From contig JAGFZV010000008.1 of NCBI GenBank assembly GCA_017889545.1, forward strand, positions 70,874-134,873: 64,000 nucleotides of DNA. Reading direction: 5' to 3'. Below are positions 3,060 through 52,852 of the stretch, in pieces. The position numbers were made by a program, and so were the translations under genes. The stretch's first letter is position 1, and each line of letters begins with the position of its first letter. Below the pieces are notes generated by a model. It saw nothing but the letters and a program-made list of their open reading frames with translations, ran no database searches and was not told the DNA's origin. Source of the stretch: Bacillota bacterium (GTDB lineage: Bacteria > Bacillota > Negativicutes > CTSoil-072).

Positions 3060-3692
3060 ATGGATTCGAAAGAATTTACTGCTAAAACGATCGAAGAAGC
3101 GGTGGCAGCGGCTCTAACTGAGTTGCAAGTTACAGAGGACCAAATTGAATATGAGATTTTAGATGTGCCAAGTAAAGGATTGTTTGGTATTATCGGTAAT
3201 AAGCCTGCACGTATTCAAGTTTCTGTAAAAATTGCCAAAAAAATTGATCCGCTTACCGTAGCCCATGATTTTCTGAGTCAAGTATTCGATGCGATGCATA
3301 TTGATGTAAAGATTGAAATTTTGGATAATGATGAGTGTAAAATGATTCATCTGCATGGGGATAATTTAGGAGTGTTGATTGGGAAACATGGTCAGACGCT
3401 TGACGCACTTCAATATTTAACGAATTTGGCCGCCAATCATGATGCGGAAGAACGGGTTCGCATTGTTATTGACATAGAAGACTACCGGAAACGGCGTGAG
3501 GAGACTTTATCGCGCTTAGCGTTTCGATTGGCGGATAAAGTGAAACGTCATCACGAACGAGTAGTGTTGGAACCTATGAGTGCGCATGAAAGAAAGATTA
3601 TCCATATGGCTCTACAGGACGATGCCCGCATATCTACTTACAGTGAAGGGGAAGAGCCTTACCGAAAAGTGGTTATAGCGTTAAAAAGATAA
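3060..3692 (+). CDS. jag: Jag/KhpB RNA-binding protein (KH and R3H domains)
   Basis: 210 aa; C-terminal ...RHHERVVLEPMSAHERKIIHMALQDDARISTYSEGEEPYRKVVI R3H-like motif; synteny after yidC. Confidence 0.85.
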   Translation: MDSKEFTAKTIEEAVAAALTELQVTEDQIEYEILDVPSKGLFGIIGNKPARIQVSVKIAKKIDPLTVAHDFLSQVFDAMHIDVKIEILDNDECKMIHLHGDNLGVLIGKHGQTLDALQYLTNLAANHDAEERVRIVIDIEDYRKRREETLSRLAFRLADKVKRHHERVVLEPMSAHERKIIHMALQDDARISTYSEGEEPYRKVVIALKR

Positions 3693-3709
3693 TTTTCGGA
3701 TATGCTAGA

Positions 3710-3748
3710 CCCCAGTAGTAATGGCTATTATTACTGGGGTTTCTTTAT
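3710..3748 (+). terminator. Intrinsic terminator after jag
   Basis: ccccagtagtaatggctattattactgggg hairpin followed by TTTCTTTAT. Confidence 0.7.
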
Positions 3749-3788
3749 ATGAACTATTTTTGATTTTAGAGGAAGGCGGCGGAGCCTG

Positions 3789-5213: not shown

Positions 5214-7085
5214 TTGTTCAGTGTAAGTTCTTATGATGTCATAGTAATTGGCGCTGGTCACGCTGGTTGTGAAGCAGGCTTGGCTGCAGCTAGAATGGGC
5301 TGTAGAACGTTGGTCGCTACTTTAAATCTGGATAACATTGCGCTGATGCCGTGTAATCCTTCGGTAGGCGGTCCAGCGAAGGGTCATTTGGTGCGTGAAA
5401 TTGACGCTTTGGGCGGAGAAATGGGACTGAATGCGGACTATACTTGCATTCAGATGAGGATGCTAAATACGGCAAAGGGACCGGCGGTACATGCCCTGCG
5501 GGCTCAGTCGGATAAAAAACTTTATCAGGATAGAATGAAGCAGGTATTGGAAAATCAGTCCAATTTGTCAGTTAAGCAGGTTCTTGTTACCAAAATTTTG
5601 GCTGAAAATGGCCAAGTATGTGGCGTACAAGGCGAAAATGGAGATATATATCATTGCAGATGTGTTATTTTAGCCAGTGGAACCTATTTGCGAGCGAAGA
5701 TTATTCTCGGTGATCTTGCATATCCTGGCGGACCAAACGGGCAAAGATCTGCGGATCATCTGACGGATTCGCTGCGGGATTTGGGGATTGAATTAATGCG
5801 TTTTAAGACGGGTACTCCGGCGCGTGTTGATTGTCATTCGCTTGATTTTTCGAAAATGTCTATTCAACCCGGGGATGAGCAAACAAGAAATTTTTCCTTT
5901 ATGAGTGATATTGCTGTCCGGGAGCAAATCCCCTGTTGGCTGACTTACACAAATCAAACGACTCATCAAATCATTCGGGACAATTTGCATCGTGCGCCGC
6001 TGTATTCAGGAAAAATTGAGGGGACAGGACCGCGGTATTGTCCGTCTATTGAAGATAAAGTGGTCCGGTTTGCTGAAAAGGAAGCCCATCAACTGTTTAT
6101 CGAGCCGGAAGGCCGCTCGACCAGTGAAATGTATGTTCAAGGGATGTCCACCAGCTTGCCGTTGGATGTCCAACTTGCTTTTTTACGGACTATTCCTGGG
6201 ATGGAAAAGGTTGAAATCATGCGCCCAGGGTATGCGATTGAATATGACTGCATTGATCCTACCCAGTTGACGCCATCGTTGGAATGTAAATTTTTGCGTG
6301 GTTTTTTCTCGGCTGGACAAATGAATGGAACGTCAGGTTATGAAGAAGCGGCCGCTCAGGGGCTAATTGCTGGGATTAATGCAGCATTAACGGTGCAAGG
6401 AAAACCGGCATTTACCTTGTCGAGGGCAGAGGCTTATATTGGCGTTCTGATCGACGATTTAGTCACCAAAGGGACTCCGGAGCCATATCGCATTATGACA
6501 TCCAGAGCAGAATACCGCCTTCTTTTACGGCAGGATAATGCAGACATGCGGTTAACCGAAAAAGGCCGGAAGCTTGCGTTGGTGAATGAGCTCCGTTATG
6601 AACGTTTCTGCAAAAAGCGCGATGCATTGTCAGAGGTTGTTCTGATGTTGCGCAATACCACCATTTCCCCGACTCCGGAGAACCAGCAGATTTTACTTTC
6701 CATGGGATCATCTGAGTTAAGAAGCGGATCGACGTTATATGATTTATTGCGGCGAACCGAGATCAGCTACGAGGCTCTTCGTGCTTCCTTTACATTGCCT
6801 GAATTGGCGGAAGAAGTGAGAGAGCAAGTGGAGATTTTAGCTAAGTATGAAGGATATATTCGAAAACAGCAGGAACAGGTAGAACGGTTGGCGAAGTTGG
6901 AAGCGAAGCAGTTGCCGCTGGATATTGATTATCAAATAATTGCCGGATTGGCTTTAGAGGCACGGCAAAAACTCAATAAAATCAAACCGGCTTCCGTAGG
7001 GCAGGCAACAAGGATCTCTGGGGTATCTCCGGCGGACATTTCAATTTTACTGGTATATCTTGAACAGCGGCGGCGAGGTGAGTAA
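5214..7085 (+). CDS. mnmG: tRNA uridine 5-carboxymethylaminomethyl modification enzyme MnmG (GidA)
   Basis: 623 aa; N-terminal FAD motif [15 protein letters not shown]; synteny after mnmE; TTG start. Confidence 0.95.
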
Positions 7086-13072: not shown

Positions 13073-13961
13073 GCGCGGTTTAGGACGTGGTTTGGATGCG
13101 TTGATTCCTTCTGCAGGAGATCAGGGAATGGATCAGGATAATATCAATGAAGTCGCTGTAAGGGATATTGTTGCGAACCGCTTCCAGCCCCGGAAAATTT
13201 TTGAACCGGAAAAATTGACAGAGTTGGCAGAGTCAATTAAACAGCATGGAATTTTACAGCCGGTTGTTGTTCGCAGAATGGCTCAGGGTTTTGAACTTGT
13301 CGCCGGTGAACGCCGTTGGCGCGCATCGCAGTTAGCGGGATTGAAAAATATTCCGGCAGTGATCCGTGATTATACAGATACGCAAATGATGGAGATTGCT
13401 TTGATTGAAAACCTGCAACGTCAGGATTTGAACCCTATTGAAGAAGCGGTGGCTTATCGACGGTTAATGGATGAATTTAATCTCACACAAGATATTGTAG
13501 CTCATCGTGTTGGGCGCAGCAGATCATATGTAGCAAATATGGTAAGGCTTATTCATTTGCCGGATACGATCCAGGATTTTGTTTCACGTGGAACATTAAC
13601 GATGGGACAAACAAGGCCGTTATTGGCATTAGAAAATGCCGATCTTCAGATGCAAGCTGCAAGGCGGATTATTGATGAAGATTTATCGGCTCGAGATGCG
13701 GAAGAACTGGTTCGTAATTTGGTAGATAGCCCGCCGGCACGAAAGGCTCCTCGGGCCATGCAAAAAGAATTTTTCATGGCGGATGCAGAAGATCGTCTTA
13801 AGATGTTATTGGGCACGAAGGTGCACATAAAACCAGGTAAGCTAAAGAGCAAGATAGAAATTGAATTCCATTCTGCAGAGGAACTGGACCGTATTATTGA
13901 AACGATGTCATCGTCAGCCTGTGTACCAACCCATAAGGTGAGGGCTACATTTGTTGTATAA
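13065..13961 (+). CDS. spo0J: Chromosome partitioning protein Spo0J/ParB
   Basis: ParB N-terminal domain ([10 protein letters not shown]...[14 protein letters not shown]) and HTH; overlaps soj stop; contains a parS site internally. Confidence 0.9.
13581..13596. promoter_or_regulatory. parS site inside spo0J
   Basis: TGTTTCACGTGGAACA; its reverse complement TGTTCCACGTGAAACA matches the canonical parS consensus TGTTNCACGTGAAACA. Confidence 0.8.
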
Positions 13962-14322
13962 AATCGCTATCAAGACGGGGCCTATCCTCGCTAGGTGAAA
14001 TAGGCTGTAGTTCGAAGCCAACAAAAAAATAGCATCGCGAAATTAGTGATTTCAAGCCTCAGACTAAATTTATCAAAAATTCAGTTGTTCTCTATTTCCC
14101 CCCACTTAAATAAGTGGGGGGCTTCTTGGGACTTAGTGGCTGAAACTGCCAGGATTTTTTGATCTTCCGGCTCCGGCGTTTCCTTTGCTTGATTGTCAGG
14201 TTGGATATTCAGATTCGTGCCCCATTAGATTTTGCACAGTATCGAAATTTTAGCTGAGGTCTACGTAAATTCTATCGATGTATATGACGGAAGTTTTAGT
14301 GCGGGTTAGTTATTGTGCATAT

Positions 14323-14338
14323 TGTTTCACGTGAAACA
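14323..14338. promoter_or_regulatory. parS site (perfect palindrome) in aspA 5' region
   Basis: TGTTTCACGTGAAACA within the 20-bp perfect palindrome ATTGTTTCACGTGAAACAAT (14321-14340), 28 nt upstream of the aspA start. Confidence 0.8.
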
Positions 14339-14365
14339 ATATGCAACAACAAGGGGAGTGGCGCA

Positions 14366-15763
14366 ATGCGCATAGAAGAAGACTTGCTTGGCGAACGGGA
14401 AATTCCAGCAGAAGCTTATTACGGGATACATACGGCAAGAGCTGTCGAAAATTTCCCGCTGACTCCTTATCGTGTCCATCCAAAATTAATCCGAGCAATC
14501 GCGTTAATCAAAAAAGCCGCAGCCGAAGTAAACTGTGAATTAAAATTCTTGCCAAAGGCAATTGCGGATCCGATAGTCCAGGCCGCTGAGGAAGTCTTAC
14601 AGGGGCAATGGCAGGATCAGTTTATTGTGGATGCCTTACAAGGCGGTGCAGGAACATCAACAAATATGAATGTCAATGAAGTTTTGGCGAACCGGGCGTT
14701 AGAGATTTTGGGAAAAGCAAGAGGCGAATACTCGGTTGTCCATCCTTTAAATCATGTTAATTTACAGCAATCAACAAATGATGTTTATCCCACCGGACTG
14801 CGGATTGCGGCCTTATGGTTGTTAAAATTGCTTAGTGAAGAATGTGCAGCACTACAGGAAGCATTACAAGAAAAAGAAGCGCAGTTTGCACACGTTATAA
14901 AGGTGGGTCGTACGGAAATGCAAGACGCCGTGCCAATAATGCTTGGACAGGAATTTAGCGCATATGCGCAAGCGATCGCACGCGATCGATGGCGTCTGTA
15001 TAAGGTAGAAGAGCGATTGCGCCAGGTAAACCTTGGAGGAACAGCCATCGGCACGGGGATCAACGCAGATAAAAAGTACATTTATATGGTGAATGACCGG
15101 GTTCGTATGCATGTCGGTTTTGGGCTGTCGAGAGCCGAAAATATGATTGATGCAACACAGAATGCCGATGTATTTGTAGAAGTATCGGGGCTTGTAAAAA
15201 CATTAGCGGTCAATTTGAGCAAAATTGCTCATGATTTGCGATTGCTATCATCCGGCCCATTCGCTGGATTGGGAGAAATCAGCCTGCCAGAGCGCCAAGC
15301 CGGGTCGTCCATTATGCCTGGAAAGGTTAACCCGGTTATCCCGGAAGCTGTTAACCAGGCGGCCTTTCACGTAATTGCCGGCGATGTTGCAATTACTCTG
15401 GCTGCACAATCCGGGCAATTGGAATTGAATTCTTTCATGCCGCTAATCGCACATCATTTGCTGGGAAATTTGGAACTATTAACGAACAGCGTTCGTGTTT
15501 TTCGTGTGTACTGTATTCAGGGGATTGTTGCGAATGAAGAACAATGCCGCTATTTGTTGGCGAATAGTCTTGCGTCAATTACTGCCTTGGTTCCATATAT
15601 TGGTTACGACCGTGTGTCGCATATCGCTCACTTAGTCGGAAAAGACGGACGATCGCTTGAGGAAATTGTCGTGGCCGAAAGTGGATTAACCTCTGAGGAA
15701 CTGGATAAGATACTCAATCCTAAGCGAATGACCAGCCCGGGAATAGCTCGTTTGCCGGATTAA
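14366..15763 (+). CDS. aspA: Aspartate ammonia-lyase (fumarase/aspartase family)
   Basis: N-terminus MRIEEDLLGEREIPAEAYYGIHTARAVENF (aspartase-like) and signature AGSSIMPGKVNPVIPE; ATG 14366 with SD AAGGGGAG. Confidence 0.8.
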   Translation: MRIEEDLLGEREIPAEAYYGIHTARAVENFPLTPYRVHPKLIRAIALIKKAAAEVNCELKFLPKAIADPIVQAAEEVLQGQWQDQFIVDALQGGAGTSTNMNVNEVLANRALEILGKARGEYSVVHPLNHVNLQQSTNDVYPTGLRIAALWLLKLLSEECAALQEALQEKEAQFAHVIKVGRTEMQDAVPIMLGQEFSAYAQAIARDRWRLYKVEERLRQVNLGGTAIGTGINADKKYIYMVNDRVRMHVGFGLSRAENMIDATQNADVFVEVSGLVKTLAVNLSKIAHDLRLLSSGPFAGLGEISLPERQAGSSIMPGKVNPVIPEAVNQAAFHVIAGDVAITLAAQSGQLELNSFMPLIAHHLLGNLELLTNSVRVFRVYCIQGIVANEEQCRYLLANSLASITALVPYIGYDRVSHIAHLVGKDGRSLEEIVVAESGLTSEELDKILNPKRMTSPGIARLPD

Positions 15764-18678: not shown

Positions 18679-18698
18679 GGCTTATTTTAGTTCGGAAG

Positions 18699-18770
18699 GA
18701 AGTATAAAGTAAGACTAAGCTTCAGATGAGGTTAAAACTTCATCTGAAGCTTAGTCGCACTTATTTTAGT
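18699..18770 (-). repeat. Intergenic repeat copy A (modules M1+M2, inverted relative to copy C)
   Basis: gaagtataaagtaagact + hairpin aagcttcagatgagg/ttaaaa/cttcatctgaagctt + agtcgcacttattt; reverse complement matches aaataagtgcgactaaacttcagatgg...ccatctgaagc at 45623-45667. Confidence 0.7.
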
Positions 18771-18807
18771 CCAAAGGAAATATAATACCTGACGGGGAGA
18801 GTGAAGC

Positions 18808-37755: not shown

Positions 37756-37906
37756 TTGACGATTTTATGCGAATACGGTATAATATAACACATAAGCACA
37801 TACACAACAGGTATGGAACTGGCGGATCAGTGGAAATAACCACATGAACCATATCTGAAAAAGCCGACCGCCTGGGCATAATTTTATGACCCAGGCGGTC
37901 TTTTTA
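37756..37906 (+). ncRNA. Candidate small RNA or attenuator: sigma-A promoter + 115-nt transcript + intrinsic terminator upstream of pflB
   Basis: TTGACG (37756-37761), 17-nt spacer, TATAAT (37779-37784); terminator gaccgcctgggcataattttatgacccaggcggtc + TTTTT (37866-37905); no ORF with SD in between. Confidence 0.4.
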
Positions 37907-37992: not shown

Positions 37993-40221
37993 ATGAGAGA
38001 ATGGAAAAATTTTAGAGGCGGAGTTTGGGAGACAACAATTCAGGTGAGTGATTTTATTCAGCAGAATTATACCCCGTACACAGGTGACGATCAATTTTTA
38101 ACCGGCATCAGCCCCAAAACGCAAACTCTCTGGGAACGCTGCACAGAATTACTGAGCAATGAACGTAAAAAAGGCGGCGTTTTGGCAGTTGATTTCAAGA
38201 CGGTATCGTCTATTACGGCTCATCAGCCGGGCTATATTGATAAAGAACTGGAAGAAATTGTAGGATTGCAGACGGATCAACCATTAAAGCGCAGTGTTAT
38301 TGTAAACGGCGGCATCCGGATGGCGGAGCAGGCTTGCCAGGCATATGGTTATGAACTTGATCCAACAATTAGCGCTATCTATCATAACCATCGAACGACG
38401 CATAATACAGCCGTATTTCATGCTTATACGGAAGAGATGAAGCAAGCCCGACGTTTGGGCATTATTACAGGTCTCCCGGACGCCTATGGGCGTGGCCGTA
38501 TTATTGGAGACTATCGCCGGGTTGCACTATATGGAACAGACCGGCTGATTGTCGGAAAGCAAAATGATTTAAAAGCCTTGGCGAATAAACCGATGAGTGA
38601 AGAAGTCGTCAAGCTGCGCGAAGAAGTAGCGGCTCAAATTTCGGCGTTGGAGGATATGACCAAAATGGCGGCATCCTATGGATGTGCGATTGATCAGCCT
38701 GCTGCCGATGCACAGCAAGCGGTACAATGGGTCTACTTCGGTTATTTGGCAGCGATAAAAGAGCAAAACGGTGCGGCGATGTCCTTGGGCAGGGTCTCGA
38801 CCTTCCTGGATATTTATTTGGAACGTGATTTAGCTGCCGGAAAAATTTCCGAAGAACAAGCACAGGCATTAATCGACCAACTGATCATTAAGTTGCGGCT
38901 GGCACGGCATTTAAGGACTCCTGAATACAACGAATTATATGCCGGCGACCCTTTGTGGGTCACGGAAGCAATTGGCGGGATGGGCTTGGACGGGCGTACC
39001 TTAGTGACTCGCACCTCATACCGTATCCTGCAAACCTTGTACAATTTAGGCCCTGCTCCGGAGCCGAACCTGACGGTGCTATGGTCTGTGAATTTGCCGG
39101 AACAATTCAAGCAATACTGTGCGCAAGTTTCCATCAAGACCAGTGCAATTCAATATGAAAATGACGATATTATGCGTCCGGTCTATGGAGATGATTACGC
39201 AATTGCCTGTTGCGTATCGGCCATGAAAGTCGGCAAACAGATGCAGTTTTTTGGCGCCCGGGCCAATCTTGCAAAAGCGTTGTTATTGGCAATCAACGGC
39301 GGGATCGATGAAAAAAGCGGCGAACAGCTTGGTCCCAAGATGCCGCTTCCACCAGATGGAGCACTGAACTATGAACAAGTACGCGCCAATTATTCTACGG
39401 TTATAGACTGGCTGGCGGGTTTGTATGTGAATACATTGAATTTAATTCATTTCATGCATGACAAATATGCGTACGAAAGAGCCCAAATGGCGCTCCACGA
39501 TACCGAAGTCGAACGGTTAATGGCGTTTGGGGCGGCCGGATTGTCTGTAGCCGCCGATTCTCTCAGCGCGATACGTCATGCAAAAGTGAAACCCGTTCGC
39601 GACGAGCGAGGAATTGCCGTCGATTTTGCCGTAGAAGGCCAATTTCCCTGTTACGGTAACAATGATGAGCGGGTAGACGCGCTGGCCGCTGAGCTAAGCG
39701 CCGAGTTTTCCGACAAACTAAAGCAACATGCAACTTACCGCCAGGCTCGTCACACGCTGTCAATATTGACAATCACCTCGAATGTGATGTATGGCAAAAA
39801 GACCGGCGCAACCCCAGACGGTCGGGCAGCCGGTGAAGCATTTGCCCCAGGCGCCAATCCCATGCATGGGCGCGATAAGAATGGCGCATTGGCAGCGATT
39901 GCCTCCATTACCAATTTATCTTATGATGATTGCCGTGATGGGATTTCCTACACTTTTTCCATTGTGCCCGGTGCATTGGGGAAATCAAATATTGCCCGCG
40001 TTGGCAATTTGACAGCGATGCTGGATGGGTATGCAATACAGGCGGGTCACCATATCAATGTGAATGTTCTTGATCGGGCTGTGCTGAAAGATGCCATGGC
40101 TCATCCGGAAAAATACCCGCAATTGACTATTCGTGTTTCCGGCTATGCAGTTCATTTTACAAAACTGACGCCAACACAACAGGCGGAAGTGCTCAACCGG
40201 ACCTTTTATCAGGCGGTGTAA
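37993..40221 (+). CDS. pflB: Formate C-acetyltransferase (pyruvate formate-lyase, glycyl radical enzyme)
   Basis: 742 aa; C-terminal glycyl-radical motif RVSGYAVHF; adjacent activating enzyme. Confidence 0.9.
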
Positions 40222-42224: not shown

Positions 42225-42254
42225 TTGACAAGTGTATACTTGCGAGACTATAAT
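42225..42254 (+). promoter_or_regulatory. Sigma-A promoter of the aroF-pheA leader
   Basis: TTGACA (42225-42230), 18-nt spacer, TATAAT (42249-42254). Confidence 0.6.
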
Positions 42255-42289
42255 TACATCATCATCAGGTAAGGTTAGGTGTTCACGAT

Positions 42290-42448
42290 ATGAATAACAT
42301 CAAACAAGTTTGCCAACTGAATACAGTTTCTGTGTTTAACTTTTTTAGCCAAGGCTGGTTTTTTAGCGTTGGTTATTTTGCGTTTACATGGAAAACTGAA
42401 TATGGCGCAAATTTTTTGAAGTTCCTCCGTGTGGATCCTTTAACATGA
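42290..42448 (+). CDS. Putative aromatic-rich leader peptide (52 aa) of the aroF-pheA operon
   Basis: ATG 42290 preceded by SD AGGTG; MNNIKQVCQLNTVSVFNFFSQGWFFSVGYFAFTWKTEYGANFLKFLRVDPLT: 9 Phe, 2 Trp, 2 Tyr; stop TGA 42446-42448; terminator follows. Confidence 0.45.
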   Translation: MNNIKQVCQLNTVSVFNFFSQGWFFSVGYFAFTWKTEYGANFLKFLRVDPLT

Positions 42449-42477
42449 TCATTACGTAATATGAATGACATACAAGG

Positions 42478-42516
42478 CGAGGTTCTTTGGAAAAAGAACT
42501 TCGTCTTTTCTTTTGG
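42478..42516 (+). terminator. Attenuator-type intrinsic terminator in the aroF leader
   Basis: cgaggttcttt / ggaa / aaagaacttcg stem followed by TCTTTTCTTTTGG; 30 nt downstream of the leader ORF stop. Confidence 0.6.
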
Positions 42517-42608
42517 TCTTATAGAAAGTATAAATACTTTCTATGACATAAGCGCAACCAGCGGCGTATGCCGTCGCTAAAAGCTCGGCACAAGCCGGGT
42601 TTTCTAAT
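42517..42608 (+). repeat. Intergenic repeat copy B (modules M1+M3) immediately upstream of aroF
   Basis: Palindrome atagaaagtataaatactttctat (42521-42544) + acataagcgcaaccagcggcgtatgccgtcgctaaaagctcggcacaagccgggttttctaat (42546-42608), near-identical to 45687-45751. Confidence 0.7.
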
Positions 42609-44598: not shown

Positions 44599-45483
44599 AT
44601 GATAAAAGACAACAAGAGCCTGGTATATTTTGTGATGATTTTTGTGACGTTTATCTGGGGTGTGAATATGCCGATTATGAAAATCGGATTGCTTTATCTT
44701 CCGCCCATGCCGTATAATGCTGCCAGAATGCTGTGCGCTTTGGTTGCAACACTACTGTTTACAGTCATTACGAAAAGTTATCGGCCGCTTGACCGGAAGG
44801 ATATCAAAACAATTTTATTGGTCAGTATTGGCGGTTTTTTTGTCTTTCAGTTATTTCTTACCGCCGGCGTCCAAAAAACGACTGCTGGGAATGGTTCATT
44901 AATCATGGCCTTGCTGCCTGTTAGTGTGGCGATAATCAATAAGATTTGCAAAATTGAAGAGATTTCGCGGTTTGCAATGGCTGGAATTATTTGTTCTTTA
45001 CTGGGTATTGTTTTAATTGTGGCGGGATCCAGCAAAGAAATCAGCTTTGCTGATGAACATATCTATGGCGCGCTTCTCCTTTTGGGGGCACAGGCAAGTT
45101 ACGGATATTATACGGTTTTTTCAAAGGATTTGTTACAGAAATATTCTACTTATCAGATCACAATGTACATTGTTTTGATTTCGACGGCATTGTTTTGTCT
45201 GACGGCCTGGCCCAGCATTGCTGCAACAAGTTGGCGAGAAGTCCCATTGGCAGCTTGGGGCAGCATTCTTTATTCCGGTGTGTTTGCTCTATGCATCTGT
45301 AATTTTTTGTGGATTTGGAGCGTGGGGAAGGCAGGAAGCATAAAAGCTTCCATCTATAATAATCTTTCGCCGATATTTGCGATTATTGGCGGTTATTTGT
45401 TATTAGGCGAAACGTTTAGCTTACTCCAGTTTTTTGGCGCAGCAATTATTTTCTTAGGAATATATCTAGCCCGAAAAAAGTAA
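44599..45483 (+). CDS. EamA/DMT family transporter
   Basis: About 10 TM helices, two EamA-like repeats. Confidence 0.8.
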   Translation: MIKDNKSLVYFVMIFVTFIWGVNMPIMKIGLLYLPPMPYNAARMLCALVATLLFTVITKSYRPLDRKDIKTILLVSIGGFFVFQLFLTAGVQKTTAGNGSLIMALLPVSVAIINKICKIEEISRFAMAGIICSLLGIVLIVAGSSKEISFADEHIYGALLLLGAQASYGYYTVFSKDLLQKYSTYQITMYIVLISTALFCLTAWPSIAATSWREVPLAAWGSILYSGVFALCICNFLWIWSVGKAGSIKASIYNNLSPIFAIIGGYLLLGETFSLLQFFGAAIIFLGIYLARKK

Positions 45484-45490
45484 AACAAAA

Positions 45491-45540
45491 GCAAAACCGC
45501 GAGAGCATATCAATAGGATGCTCTCGCGGTTTTGCTTTTG
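45491..45540. terminator. Bidirectional intrinsic terminator after eamA
   Basis: aaaaccgcgagagcat / loop / atgctctcgcggtttt followed by GCTTTTG. Confidence 0.8.
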
Positions 45541-45544
45541 TTTA

Positions 45545-45751
45545 GTACACCAGAAAGTATAAATTTTCCTCTACGCACAGACTGTAAGATCCCTTACGAA
45601 GGGATCAACAGTCTGTAACTCGAAATAAGTGCGACTAAACTTCAGATGGCGGTAACCATCTGAAGCAAGCCTTCTATATCTGGTGTACATAAGTGCAACC
45701 AGCGGCTTCCGCCATCGCTATAAAAGCTCGGCGCAAGCCGGGTTTTCTAAT
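45545..45751 (+). repeat. Composite intergenic repeat copy C (10-bp inverted ends, M1, 40-nt palindrome, M2 hairpin, M3 with terminator-like hairpin)
   Basis: GTACACCAGA (45545-45554) and TCTGGTGTAC (45679-45688); palindrome acagactgtaagatcccttacgaagggatcaacagtctgt (45577-45616); M2 hairpin cttcagatgg/cggtaa/ccatctgaag (45640-45665); M3 45687-45751. Confidence 0.7.
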
Positions 45752-52523: not shown

Positions 52524-52852
52524 AGGGGAATCCCTTCAAGCCCTTCCGTCTCAGTCACTTCGGATCCAAGCGGATAAAAAATTTCCAGATTACCATATGA
52601 TCAGATATGGCGTACCGTACATTGTGCAGCTCGCATGGATGCCGCCAAAATACACCAATATCAGCCTAAAAGTAACATGGGTAAAGTATTTTGTCAATAC
52701 AATCGCGAAAGATCAGAAAAAAATTTGCATTTTCTTTTCTGATGGTGCTATAATAATTAAGTCTAGGACAACATTATAGGTTTCAAATTTCGGTTTGTGA
52801 ACCTTCCCTGCCCCGCTTGAGGGGCCATTAGTCCAGAGGAGGAGGTGATTTC

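Follow-up and report, generated by a model that had tools for sequence, protein, structure and literature searches.

The intergenic repeats described here form a family that is probably non-autonomous mobile DNA, which would integrate precisely behind the T-tracts of terminators, without target-site duplication (TSD) or terminal inverted repeats (TIRs), and usually in co-orientation. The family exists and has definable boundaries; its copies are present in some and absent from other close relatives, are positioned at T-tracts with a biased orientation, have neighbouring genes of diverse kinds, and contain strand-specific helices. Three copies, designated A, B and C, lie in the window (the whole stretch of 64,000 nucleotides that was analysed), and their features are collected in Table 1.

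The original prediction proposed that three loci share the modules M1, M2 and M3, and it was found that all three loci and all three modules are present in the window sequence. Copy A has M1 in the + orientation and M2 inverted, and M3 is absent from it, as had been predicted. The loci were correctly located, but their full extents exceed those first given and are replaced by the bounds in Table 1, copy A extending from 18690 to about 18797. The similarity between the loci was evaluated relative to chance: the 24-mer on the 3′ side of M3 occurs twice in the window and was found in none of 100 shuffles, M1 (with at most one mismatch) occurs three times compared to 0.38 expected, and all four of the exact ATAAGYGCRAC cores in the window are inside the three loci. 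A repeat search of the window recovered M3 at 84% and 97% identity and an inverted 26-nt segment of M2 at 96%. Copies B and C are direct repeats on either side of one 3.1-kb operon, as would be expected of a local segmental duplication around the aro operon; however, there were no matches in the shuffles, dozens to hundreds of copies are found at unrelated loci and in other taxa, and the presence/absence histories of B and C are independent, so that neither duplication nor chance similarity is a credible explanation.

The family is indeed modular and intergenic, but M1, M2 and M3 are not three independent blocks and are instead parts of one unit of about 96 nt. This basic unit consists of stem-loop 1 containing M1, the core ATAAGTGCAAC, and the hairpins H2 and H3, followed by TTTTCTAA; the 96-nt consensus of 26 aligned copies is GTACACCAGAAAGTATAAAATTTTATCTGGTGTAC-ATAAGTGCAAC-CAGCGGCTTCCGCCGTCGCT-A(n)-AGCTCGGCGCAAGCCGGGTT-TTCTAA. 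M1 (AGAAAGTATAAA), previously regarded as a free-standing module, lies within the 5′ arm and loop of stem-loop 1, which has a 10-bp stem. H2 has outer pairs AGUG/CGCU, an asymmetric internal loop CAACCA and inner pairs GCGG/CCGU, and H3 has 8 bp including two G·U pairs, a GCAA loop, and a T-rich tail after it. The left ends of units are GTACACC… or TACTAAC… (the 5′ heads being GTAC, GTCC, GCAC or TAC), and the right ends are …GGGTTTTCTAA or …TTTTCTTTA. The A-run 5′ of H3 varies across copies (AAAA, TACT, TTCT, AGA and others), the spacing between M1 and the core ranges from 14 to more than 120 nt, and insertions within units are confined to loops. No sigma-70 site was called inside the units in a promoter scan. 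M1 was also considered as a promoter and rejected, given that there was no sigma-70 call, that its −10-like hexamer is without a conserved final T (TATAAA/G/C), and that its spacing is variable; a sporulation-sigma promoter likewise failed on spacing.

A sister unit, called the Clostridia-type, was recovered in the metagenome scan anchored on M1 and the core, and has the arrangement TACTAAC-AGAAAGTATAAR-…-GCATAAGTGCAACTAAGGC-NNNN-GCCTNCGCC-…-GGCTTGGCGCAAGCCAAG-TTTTCTTTA. Because the core of this sister subtype is ATAAGTGCAACTAA, M2 (head ATAAGTGCGACTAA) can be recognised as a diverged unit of the same superfamily. Clostridia-type units are frequently in head-to-tail arrays, including in a Desulfitobacterium-like genome, and copies throughout the family are either single or head-to-tail, with inverted doublets never seen. 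Many copies are decayed or truncated (e.g., at loci L038, L046, L061 and L050).

Table 1. Features of copies A, B and C and of their insertion targets, in window coordinates. L047 and L050 are relatives of the window's source.
Feature	Position	Strand	Remarks
Copy A, left end with M1 (GTTCGGAAGGAAGTATAAAG)	18690..18709	+	T-rich target TTATTTTA (18682-18689) just before, 3 nt past the M23 peptidase stop codon
Copy A, inverted M2 unit	18707..18762	+	27-bp imperfect hairpin; M2 head ATAAGTGCGACTAA on the - strand, 18751-18764
Copy A, putative degenerate remainder (TCCAAAGGAAATATAATACCTGAC)	18770..18797	+	Without M3 or H3
Pre-existing terminator hairpin and T-tract (…CGTCTTTTCTTTTG), target of copy B	42474..42515	+	Present in L047 without the element
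Copy B, complete basic unit	42516..42607	+	Covariance model R1, 88.7 bits, E=1.9e-16
Copy B, stem-loop 1	42516-42547	+	M1 at 42523-42534
Copy B, core ATAAGCGCAAC	42548-42558	+	H2 at 42551-42578
Copy B, H3	42582-42601	+	Loop ACAA; tail TTCTAA to 42607
EamA gene terminator, target of copy C	45483..45544	+	26-bp perfect palindrome, then …TTTTGTTTA; the same in L047 and L050 without the element
Copy C, composite unit	45545..45750	+	Centroid fold, covariance model, empty sites
Copy C, stem-1 arms	45545-45554 paired with 45679-45688	+	M1 at 45552-45563
Copy C, core	45689-45699	+	H2 at 45692-45719
Copy C, H3	45725-45744	+	GCAA loop; tail to 45750
Nested second-family hairpin in copy C	45577..45616	-	TTACAGACTGT…GATCCC…GGGATC…ACAGTCTGT
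Nested M2 unit in copy C	45625..45678	+	Head ATAAGTGCGACTAA, hairpin 45640-45665, then CAAGCCTTCTATA

According to Pfam matches, copy A has M23 peptidase and bactofilin genes on its two sides, copy B is upstream of an operon encoding DAHP synthase, prephenate dehydratase and an EamA protein, and copy C 3′ of this DAHP synthase-EamA operon, facing a convergent ABC permease gene. The hairpin of copy A was called terminator-like at 18713-18756 in a terminator scan, and because it is followed by CACTTATTTT on the + strand it resembles a terminator for the M23 peptidase gene. The left end of copy A, with its M1, is a bona fide left end of a unit; in L052, a relative with 89% identity, the corresponding sequence is GTCCGGCAGAAAGTATAAAG. 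The remainder of copy A may be the decayed right arm of stem-loop 1. In copy C, stem 1 encloses about 120 nt, where a hairpin from a second repeat family and an M2 unit are both found. This second hairpin family has independent copies at loci L007, L021, L011 and L022, and the nested M2 unit is homologous to the Clostridia-type unit ATAAGTGCAACTAA…GCAAGCCAAGTTTTCTTTATA. The composite of copy C recurs at an unrelated locus of the MAG CAYUNV (L011, about 3560-3750).

Orthologous loci of relatives were fetched via PheA and M23 peptidase homologues, and the boundaries of the elements were read from filled and empty sites. Copy C is absent from L047 (87% identity in PheA), L050 (83%) and CAYUNV (73%). 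The empty site of L047 is …GGTTTTGCTATTGTTTA^TGAGAAGTATTTTGCG… (junction TTGTTTA^TGAGAAG), and the filled site in the window is …TTTTGTTTA followed by the 206-nt element, GTACACC… to …GGGTTTTCTAA, and then TGAGAAGTATTTTGCG…. Similarly, the empty site of copy B in L047 is CTTTTCTTTTTG^TACCTGAAAAATTTT…, and the filled site in the window is CTTTTCTTTTG, then the element GTCTTATAG…CTAA, and then TATCGAAAAAAATTTT…. CAYUNV (73% PheA identity) has copy B at the corresponding site, in the same variant of stem 1, and L050 has the 3′ half of the copy. Therefore, the precise absence of copy B from L047 points to a precise loss in L047 or to independent gain. Copy A was found in L052 and L053 and is absent from CAYUNV. 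These comparisons show that copies are gained, and possibly precisely lost, between close relatives.

There was no TSD in the filled/empty pairs of copies B and C, and TIRs were absent, with the ends complementary over no more than 4 nt (TTAG/CTAA). Left flanks vary among copies and the right end does not. In the filled/empty pairs, the left junctions all follow the T-tract of a pre-existing terminator hairpin. A poly(A)-retroposon, in which the T-run would be the tail as read on the reverse strand, was rejected because the T-tract pre-exists in the empty site and is not lengthened in the filled one.

Insertion directly behind the T-tracts of pre-existing terminators is the key property of the family, and it was overlooked in the original prediction. 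Positions −7 to −2 relative to the left end are 65-90% T, and 26 of 31 full copies have A or G at position −1. The left flank is a run of T that ends in A or G, rather than one fixed tetra- or pentanucleotide. In a set of 118 independent copies, 76% have at least five T among the 7 nt before the left end, compared to 2.7% of controls, and 39% passed a strict test for a hairpin plus T-tail, compared to 1.2% of controls. In addition, 17 of 135 copies are located directly behind the H3 of another copy.

The orientation of the copies is biased toward that of the neighbouring genes. In co-directional spacers, the element had the orientation of the genes in 17 cases and the opposite one in 3 in the MAG set, and in the metagenome set 35 were co-oriented compared to 12 that were not, among the matches listed; overall, about 22% of the copies in co-directional spacers are antisense. 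Divergent spacers contain 2 of the 35 copies for which both neighbouring ORFs were called, in a set dominated by MAGs. This orientation bias could also reflect a replication-strand bias. The downstream gene is co-oriented in 20 of 39 copies, and many copies, copy C among them, face a convergent gene at its 3′ end. The downstream genes in the MAG, as read from their N-termini and not from Pfam, include uppP, a universal stress protein gene, ilvD, eno, icd, uvrA, trpS and ychF, and because these are functionally unrelated the copies do not define a regulon.

Copy B ends 30 nt upstream of the DAHP synthase ATG. One alternative explanation of the repeat is a cis-regulatory leader or attenuator, of riboswitch or protein-binding type, with the core and H2 as the sensor of a signal and H3 as the regulated terminator, for example of the DAHP synthase-pheA operon. 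Several copies end 20-45 nt before a co-oriented RBS (copy B, L009, L011, L012, L020, L033 and L038), and an alternative pairing of H2 with H3, CGGCUU with AAGCCG, can be drawn. However, this pairing is without covariation and is broken in copy B of the window and in L035, a co-oriented gene follows only about half of the copies, and the downstream genes have no common function. Furthermore, L047 has the same operon without the element, and tandem arrays of the repeat occur. A leader function as the basis of the family is therefore very unlikely.

The secondary structure was evaluated by comparing substitutions among copies. As the original prediction had noted, differences between hairpins preserve pairing (GATGAGG/CTTCATC compared to GATGG/CCATC, and GGC-GTAT-GCC compared to GGC-TTCC-GCC), and the proposal of selection on structure is upheld in that every helix has pairing-preserving substitutions. 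Stem 1 has six pairs with double-sided changes, with the variants GTACACCAGA, GTCCATCAGA, GTCTTATGGA, GTAGATAAGA and GCACATCAGA each accompanied by a matching 3′ arm, and the inner stem of H2 alternates between GCGGC/GCCGU and AAGGC/GCCUU. When the alignment was left free of constraints on H3, 39 sequences had C-G and 34 had U-A at one pair of this hairpin, and at the adjacent pair 41 had U·G and 37 had U-A. Many of these substitutions are inherited within subfamilies, so that shuffle statistics overstate the number of independent events.

Two G·U pairs of H3 are nearly invariant, being present in 77 and 74 of 78 sequences, respectively. On the opposite strand they become A·C mismatches; therefore, folding takes place on the T-tract strand only, which speaks against the earlier suggestion that the 3′ hairpin of M3 acts as a bidirectional terminator. 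This suggestion is also at odds with the variability of the A-run on the 5′ side and with the result that a simple terminator scan calls H3, which is followed by UUUUCUAA, on neither strand. Two further readings of the structure were considered and rejected. H3 could be read as domain V of a group II intron (AGC…GNRA…GUU), but it lacks the length and the bulge of such a domain, and Rfam gave no support for this. M1 (AGAAAG) could on paper form a pseudoknot with the tail (UUUUCU), but there is no compensation in the second copy of L039, in L024 or in L009, which lacks M1.

The conserved structure also suggests a functional RNA that is kept by the host, such as a 3′-UTR stabiliser or backup terminator, a trans-acting sRNA or a self-processing ribozyme, for which mobility would be the means of dispersal; this explanation partly overlaps with that of mobile DNA. 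The helices covary, the unpaired motifs AGAAAGUAUAA and AUAAGUGCAAC are invariant across bacterial classes, the G·U pairs and the GNRA loop of H3 are conserved, the fold is strand-specific, insertions are confined to loops, and copy C has a folding z of −6.4. The siting after co-oriented genes is likewise similar to that of REP and SPRITE (PMC3049150). The conserved unpaired motifs, covarying helices, G·U pairs and GNRA loop are as typical of functional RNA as of a mobile element, and to that extent count against the latter. On the other hand, the units have no internal promoter and are located behind terminators, where poor transcription is expected, and the spacing of the motifs is as variable as described above. 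The antisense copies between co-directional genes, the many decayed or truncated copies, the fast gain and loss between close relatives and the absence of a related Rfam family also do not fit well with a conserved RNA. We consider a host-maintained RNA to be rather unlikely as the explanation of the family, although it is a rival to be taken seriously.

The original prediction named further copies in relatives as a check, and many such copies were found. A scan for H3 in one genome per species returned 42 stretches. The single MAG CAYUNV01 ('uncultured Negativicutes bacterium') has 36 exact H3 matches, and other copies came from a second Negativicutes MAG, a Desulfitobacterium MAG, a Bacillota MAG and Caproiciproducens sp. 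R1. A further set of six matches is confined to the hairpin 22-mer, in the unrelated Firmicute Bacillus caseinilyticus and in MAGs of other phyla; most of these resemble ordinary terminators, and the 22-mer has the appearance of an ordinary terminator in the unrelated phyla at L019, L023, L027, L041 and L044. At least 120 stretches were returned from metagenomes by a scan with M1 and the core as its only anchors, and the covariance model recovers further copies that lack an exact seed; in each collection scan, the seed pattern fixes part of the sequence recovered. One degenerate copy is present on the Sporomusa termitida plasmid pSPTER, behind a strong terminator and at a place without annotation. 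No true copies were found in a phage collection and viral contigs. The host genomes are mostly MAGs or metagenome fragments, and the gene contexts come from a crude ORF caller. The family is widespread in anaerobic Firmicutes, namely in Sporomusaceae-like Negativicutes, Desulfitobacterium-like Clostridia and others. The source of the window itself falls among the Sporomusaceae-like Negativicutes, judging by the best named homologues of its proteins.

Copy C, a canonical MAG copy and the Desulfitobacterium array were also compared with Rfam 15, at gathering thresholds and at E<=10, and nothing relevant was obtained; the hits were all sub-threshold, to unrelated RNA families and generic hairpins, and several were on the flanking terminator. 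This agrees with the earlier statement that the element matches no repeat class that could be named, as far as Rfam 15 is concerned. The record annotation contains no description of the repeat family, and a literature search with the motif strings and for Negativicutes repeats found none either. It appears that the family had been undescribed until now.

We also considered whether the family could belong to a known class of mobile element, i.e., an IS-derived MITE with TIRs and TSDs, a RAYT-mobilised REP/BIME (REPIN), or a palindrome-associated element derived from IS200/IS605. The repeats share with REP and with IS200/IS605 ends the lack of TIR and TSD, the dependence on hairpins, strand specificity and precise absence from empty sites, and they are inserted 3′ of a T-rich motif that ends in a purine, a siting reminiscent of the IS605/IS608 targets TTTAA and TTAC. 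However, a MITE would have TIRs and TSDs, both of which were looked for and are absent, although the repeats are short, non-coding, multi-copy and polymorphic as MITEs are. REP would be expected to have inverted doublets and a conserved GTAG head, neither of which is present, and the unit is 96 nt long with three different hairpins. With IS200/IS605 the difficulty is that the hairpin at the left end is unrelated to that at the right, that a guide would have no space in front of stem 1, which begins at nucleotide 1, and that the linker 5′ of H3 varies. Membership in one of these classes is therefore quite improbable. The dissimilarity of the end hairpins and the sequence variability of stem 1, unlike the paired and conserved ends of IS200/IS605, are also awkward for the explanation that we prefer.

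This preferred explanation, non-autonomous mobile DNA that homes to terminators, can be formulated as follows. A unit of about 96 nt, or a composite with nested units, would integrate precisely, with no TSD and no TIR, immediately 3′ of the T-tract of an intrinsic terminator. Because the unit itself has a terminator-like end, H3 followed by TTTTCTAA or TTTTCTTTA, new copies could land behind or inside old ones; the imitation of the target by H3 and TTTTCTAA would thus give rise to the tandem arrays and nested mosaics, and hence to the modularity of the family. The strand-specific helices and the two invariant unpaired motifs suggest that a folded single strand is recognised, and the helices with the motifs AGAAAGTATAA and ATAAGTGCAAC would be the recognition features for a trans-acting machinery. 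Such a machinery may be similar to HUH or single-stranded DNA transposases, or may recognise terminator hairpins in the manner of group IIC introns. An autonomous parent was sought as left and right ends 0.5-4 kb apart, and neither a parent nor a candidate transposase or other partner gene was found, which counts against this explanation; the one candidate that was inspected (L088) was a chance M1-like match in a coding gene.

Once inserted, a unit would add structure to a 3′-UTR or leader and act as a weak secondary terminator. Some copies are sited between attenuator terminators and essential genes, as in front of apparent trpS and uvrA genes of the MAG and of the DAHP synthase operon in the window. 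Copies located in this way, such as copy B and the trpS-like case of L045, probably damp read-through.

A more speculative version, which we regard as unlikely, is that the repeat is a structure-guided mobile nucleic acid without a protein, the motifs AGAAAGUAUAA and AUAAGUGCAAC and the helices serving as a catalytic or guide core, or that it is the substrate of an unrecognised terminator-targeting transposase. The RNA or single-stranded DNA form of this idea would amount to ribozyme-like or RNA-guided integration by something far smaller than a group IIC intron, and either version, if true, would be a new terminator-specific 'safe-harbour' mechanism of insertion. 

To our knowledge, homing to terminators is otherwise known mainly from group IIC introns, and the same behaviour in a 96-nt element implies that there is an unrecognised trans-acting system, or else a structure-guided mechanism that is very compact. 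This is of relevance to the biology of mobile DNA and to the engineering of neutral-site integration. Small interspersed repeats such as REP, BOX, ERIC, Correia and bcr1 shape operon expression, mRNA stability and genome assembly, but we know of almost no studies of them in anaerobic Firmicutes. The present family, which is unannotated and is abundant in Negativicutes and Desulfitobacterium-like Clostridia of many metagenomes, will break MAG assemblies.

Among known systems, the closest in behaviour appear to be BOX, SPRITE, REP/BIME and bcr1, and the closest in target choice appears to be the group IIC intron. Pneumococcal and streptococcal BOX elements are modular (boxA, n copies of boxB, and boxC), with modules gained and lost, and have TIR-like ends attributed to ISSpn2 (Croucher et al. 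2011, PMC3049150). SPRITE is similar to a Rho-independent terminator and is found preferentially just 3′ of genes (PMC3049150). The family has in common with BOX and SPRITE that all are small non-coding repeats of Firmicutes with predicted RNA folds, a coding-biased orientation and unrelated neighbouring genes, but it apparently bears no likeness to the sequences described for them (PMC3049150). It differs from BOX in that it is found in Negativicutes and Clostridia, has no TIR or TSD, is inserted precisely at the end of T-tracts, and forms head-to-tail arrays.

REP sequences are single palindromes of 20-40 nt with a GT(A/G)G head, mostly in inverted pairs, in Proteobacteria. The family is similar to REP/BIME in the lack of TIR and TSD, the hairpins, the mosaicism, the sites after genes or between convergent genes, and the compensatory changes in stems, whereas its unit is directional, combines three distinct hairpins with two single-stranded motifs that are conserved, and occurs in Firmicutes. 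The bcr1 repeat of the Bacillus cereus group is about 155 nt long, intergenic, predicted to be highly structured, transcribed and mobile-like, and is flanked by a duplicated TTTAT target; our repeats have no such duplication and differ in sequence and hosts.

The ends of IS200/IS605 and of the rolling-circle IS91/Helitron type are without TIR and TSD, such elements can be precisely absent or excised, and their activity is single-stranded, strand-specific and hairpin-dependent. The family resembles them in its subterminal 3′ hairpin a few nucleotides before the end, its CTAA end and its head-to-tail arrays, and possibly in its oriented insertion 3′ of a short T-rich motif, but differs from IS200/IS605 in the unrelated hairpins at its ends, the free variation of stem 1 and the absence of evident guide tetranucleotides. 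Group IIC introns insert after intrinsic terminator motifs in the sense orientation (PMC4424553). Our repeats are like them in being inserted behind terminators, mostly in sense, whereas such an intron is a ribozyme with domains I-VI, about 0.7-2 kb long and usually with an RT ORF, compared to a unit of 96 nt with no intron hit in Rfam. Group II introns have the ends GUGYG…AY, which the unit does not have. The family is therefore to be placed with the small interspersed structured repeats, among which it is set apart by its homing to terminators, its integration without TIR or TSD, and its own mimicry of the target.

It was found that the MAG contig CAYUNV010000001 (L048; from an uncultured Negativicutes bacterium) carries an additional unit of the main, ~96-nt hairpin-rich repeat family upstream of ychF, in a region syntenic with the window, which is itself without that unit. 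Conversely, the main-family copies A and C are present in the window and absent from the syntenic region of the MAG. Therefore, the comparison of the window with this contig shows that main-family units turn over within one syntenic ~50-kb block.

A second repeat family consists of a long hairpin, TTACAGNCTGT…ACAGNCTGT, with a AACACGGAAGGG core in some members and (A)CTTATTTCGAG often preceding it. This hairpin is found solitary or nested within main-family units in either orientation. In addition, five main-family copies from metagenome Ga0255336 (retrieved stretches L081, L099, L135, L155, and L181) have in common an identical 50-60-nt insert within module M1, TACTAACAGAAAC-TTCCATGAACCTGCCGATTCACAGGGAGGTATGAAAATGTAGTCCATTTTCGTA-AGAAAGTATAA, bordered by repeated AGAAA; the insert is either a further module nested in these copies or a very small element with M1 as its target.

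The Clostridia-type units, a sister subtype of the main family, include subfamilies with additional hairpins: an H3-loop expansion, …GACAGAATGACTAATACGTGCGAAGACAGTGTCTTCG…, is conserved in many units (L065, L072, L075, L076, L130, L132, L133, L136, L140, L156, L177, and L180), and others (L086, L088, L104, and L108) contain a longer insert with CCATCCATGG motifs.

Coordinates of repeat-family members and other features in the window and in retrieved stretches (L-numbers)
Feature	Position	Strand or remark
Additional main-family unit	L048 3185-3277	
M1 insert, example	L081 about 1490-1550	
Second-family member	window 45577-45616	
Second-family member	L007 about 5700-5790	-
Second-family member	L021 about 330-400	-
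Second-family member	L022 4036-4095	
Second-family member	L015 150-200	
Sigma-70 promoter	window 42225-42254	perfect match, TTGACA-18-TATAAT
52-aa ORF	window 42290-42448	Phe-, Trp-, Tyr-rich
Terminator	window 42474-42507	3′ of 52-aa ORF
Palindrome, 30 bp	window 14316-14345	perfect
Related half-site	window 13576-13598	
ORF starting at palindrome	window 14315-15763	
ZMP/ZTP (pfl) riboswitch	window 37805-37884	+; 61.4 bits
742-aa ORF	window 37993-40221	
pan motif	window 52542-52648	-; 44.6 bits

Candidate regulatory elements were also observed in the window. The ZMP/ZTP riboswitch lies upstream of the 742-aa ORF, the syntenic gene of which in the close relative L047 has PFL-like and Gly_radical domains. 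The pan motif lies near a probable pantothenate biosynthesis gene, and in relatives the syntenic position is occupied by a pantoate ligase gene. The palindrome TGCATATTGTTTCACGTGAAACAATATGCA, which has the related half-site 721 nt upstream, looks like the operator of a dimeric regulator.

Upstream of the DAHP synthase-pheA operon, the promoter, the 52-aa ORF (MNNIKQVCQLNTVSVFNFFSQGWFFSVGYFAFTWKTEYGANFLKFLRVDPLT), and the terminator follow one another in this order (window 42225-42507). The 52-aa peptide is 96% identical in L047 and 81% identical in the CAYUNV MAG, and its aromatic residues are all invariant. One possible reading of this region is an attenuator with an aromatic-amino-acid leader peptide; another is that the ORF product is a small membrane protein.
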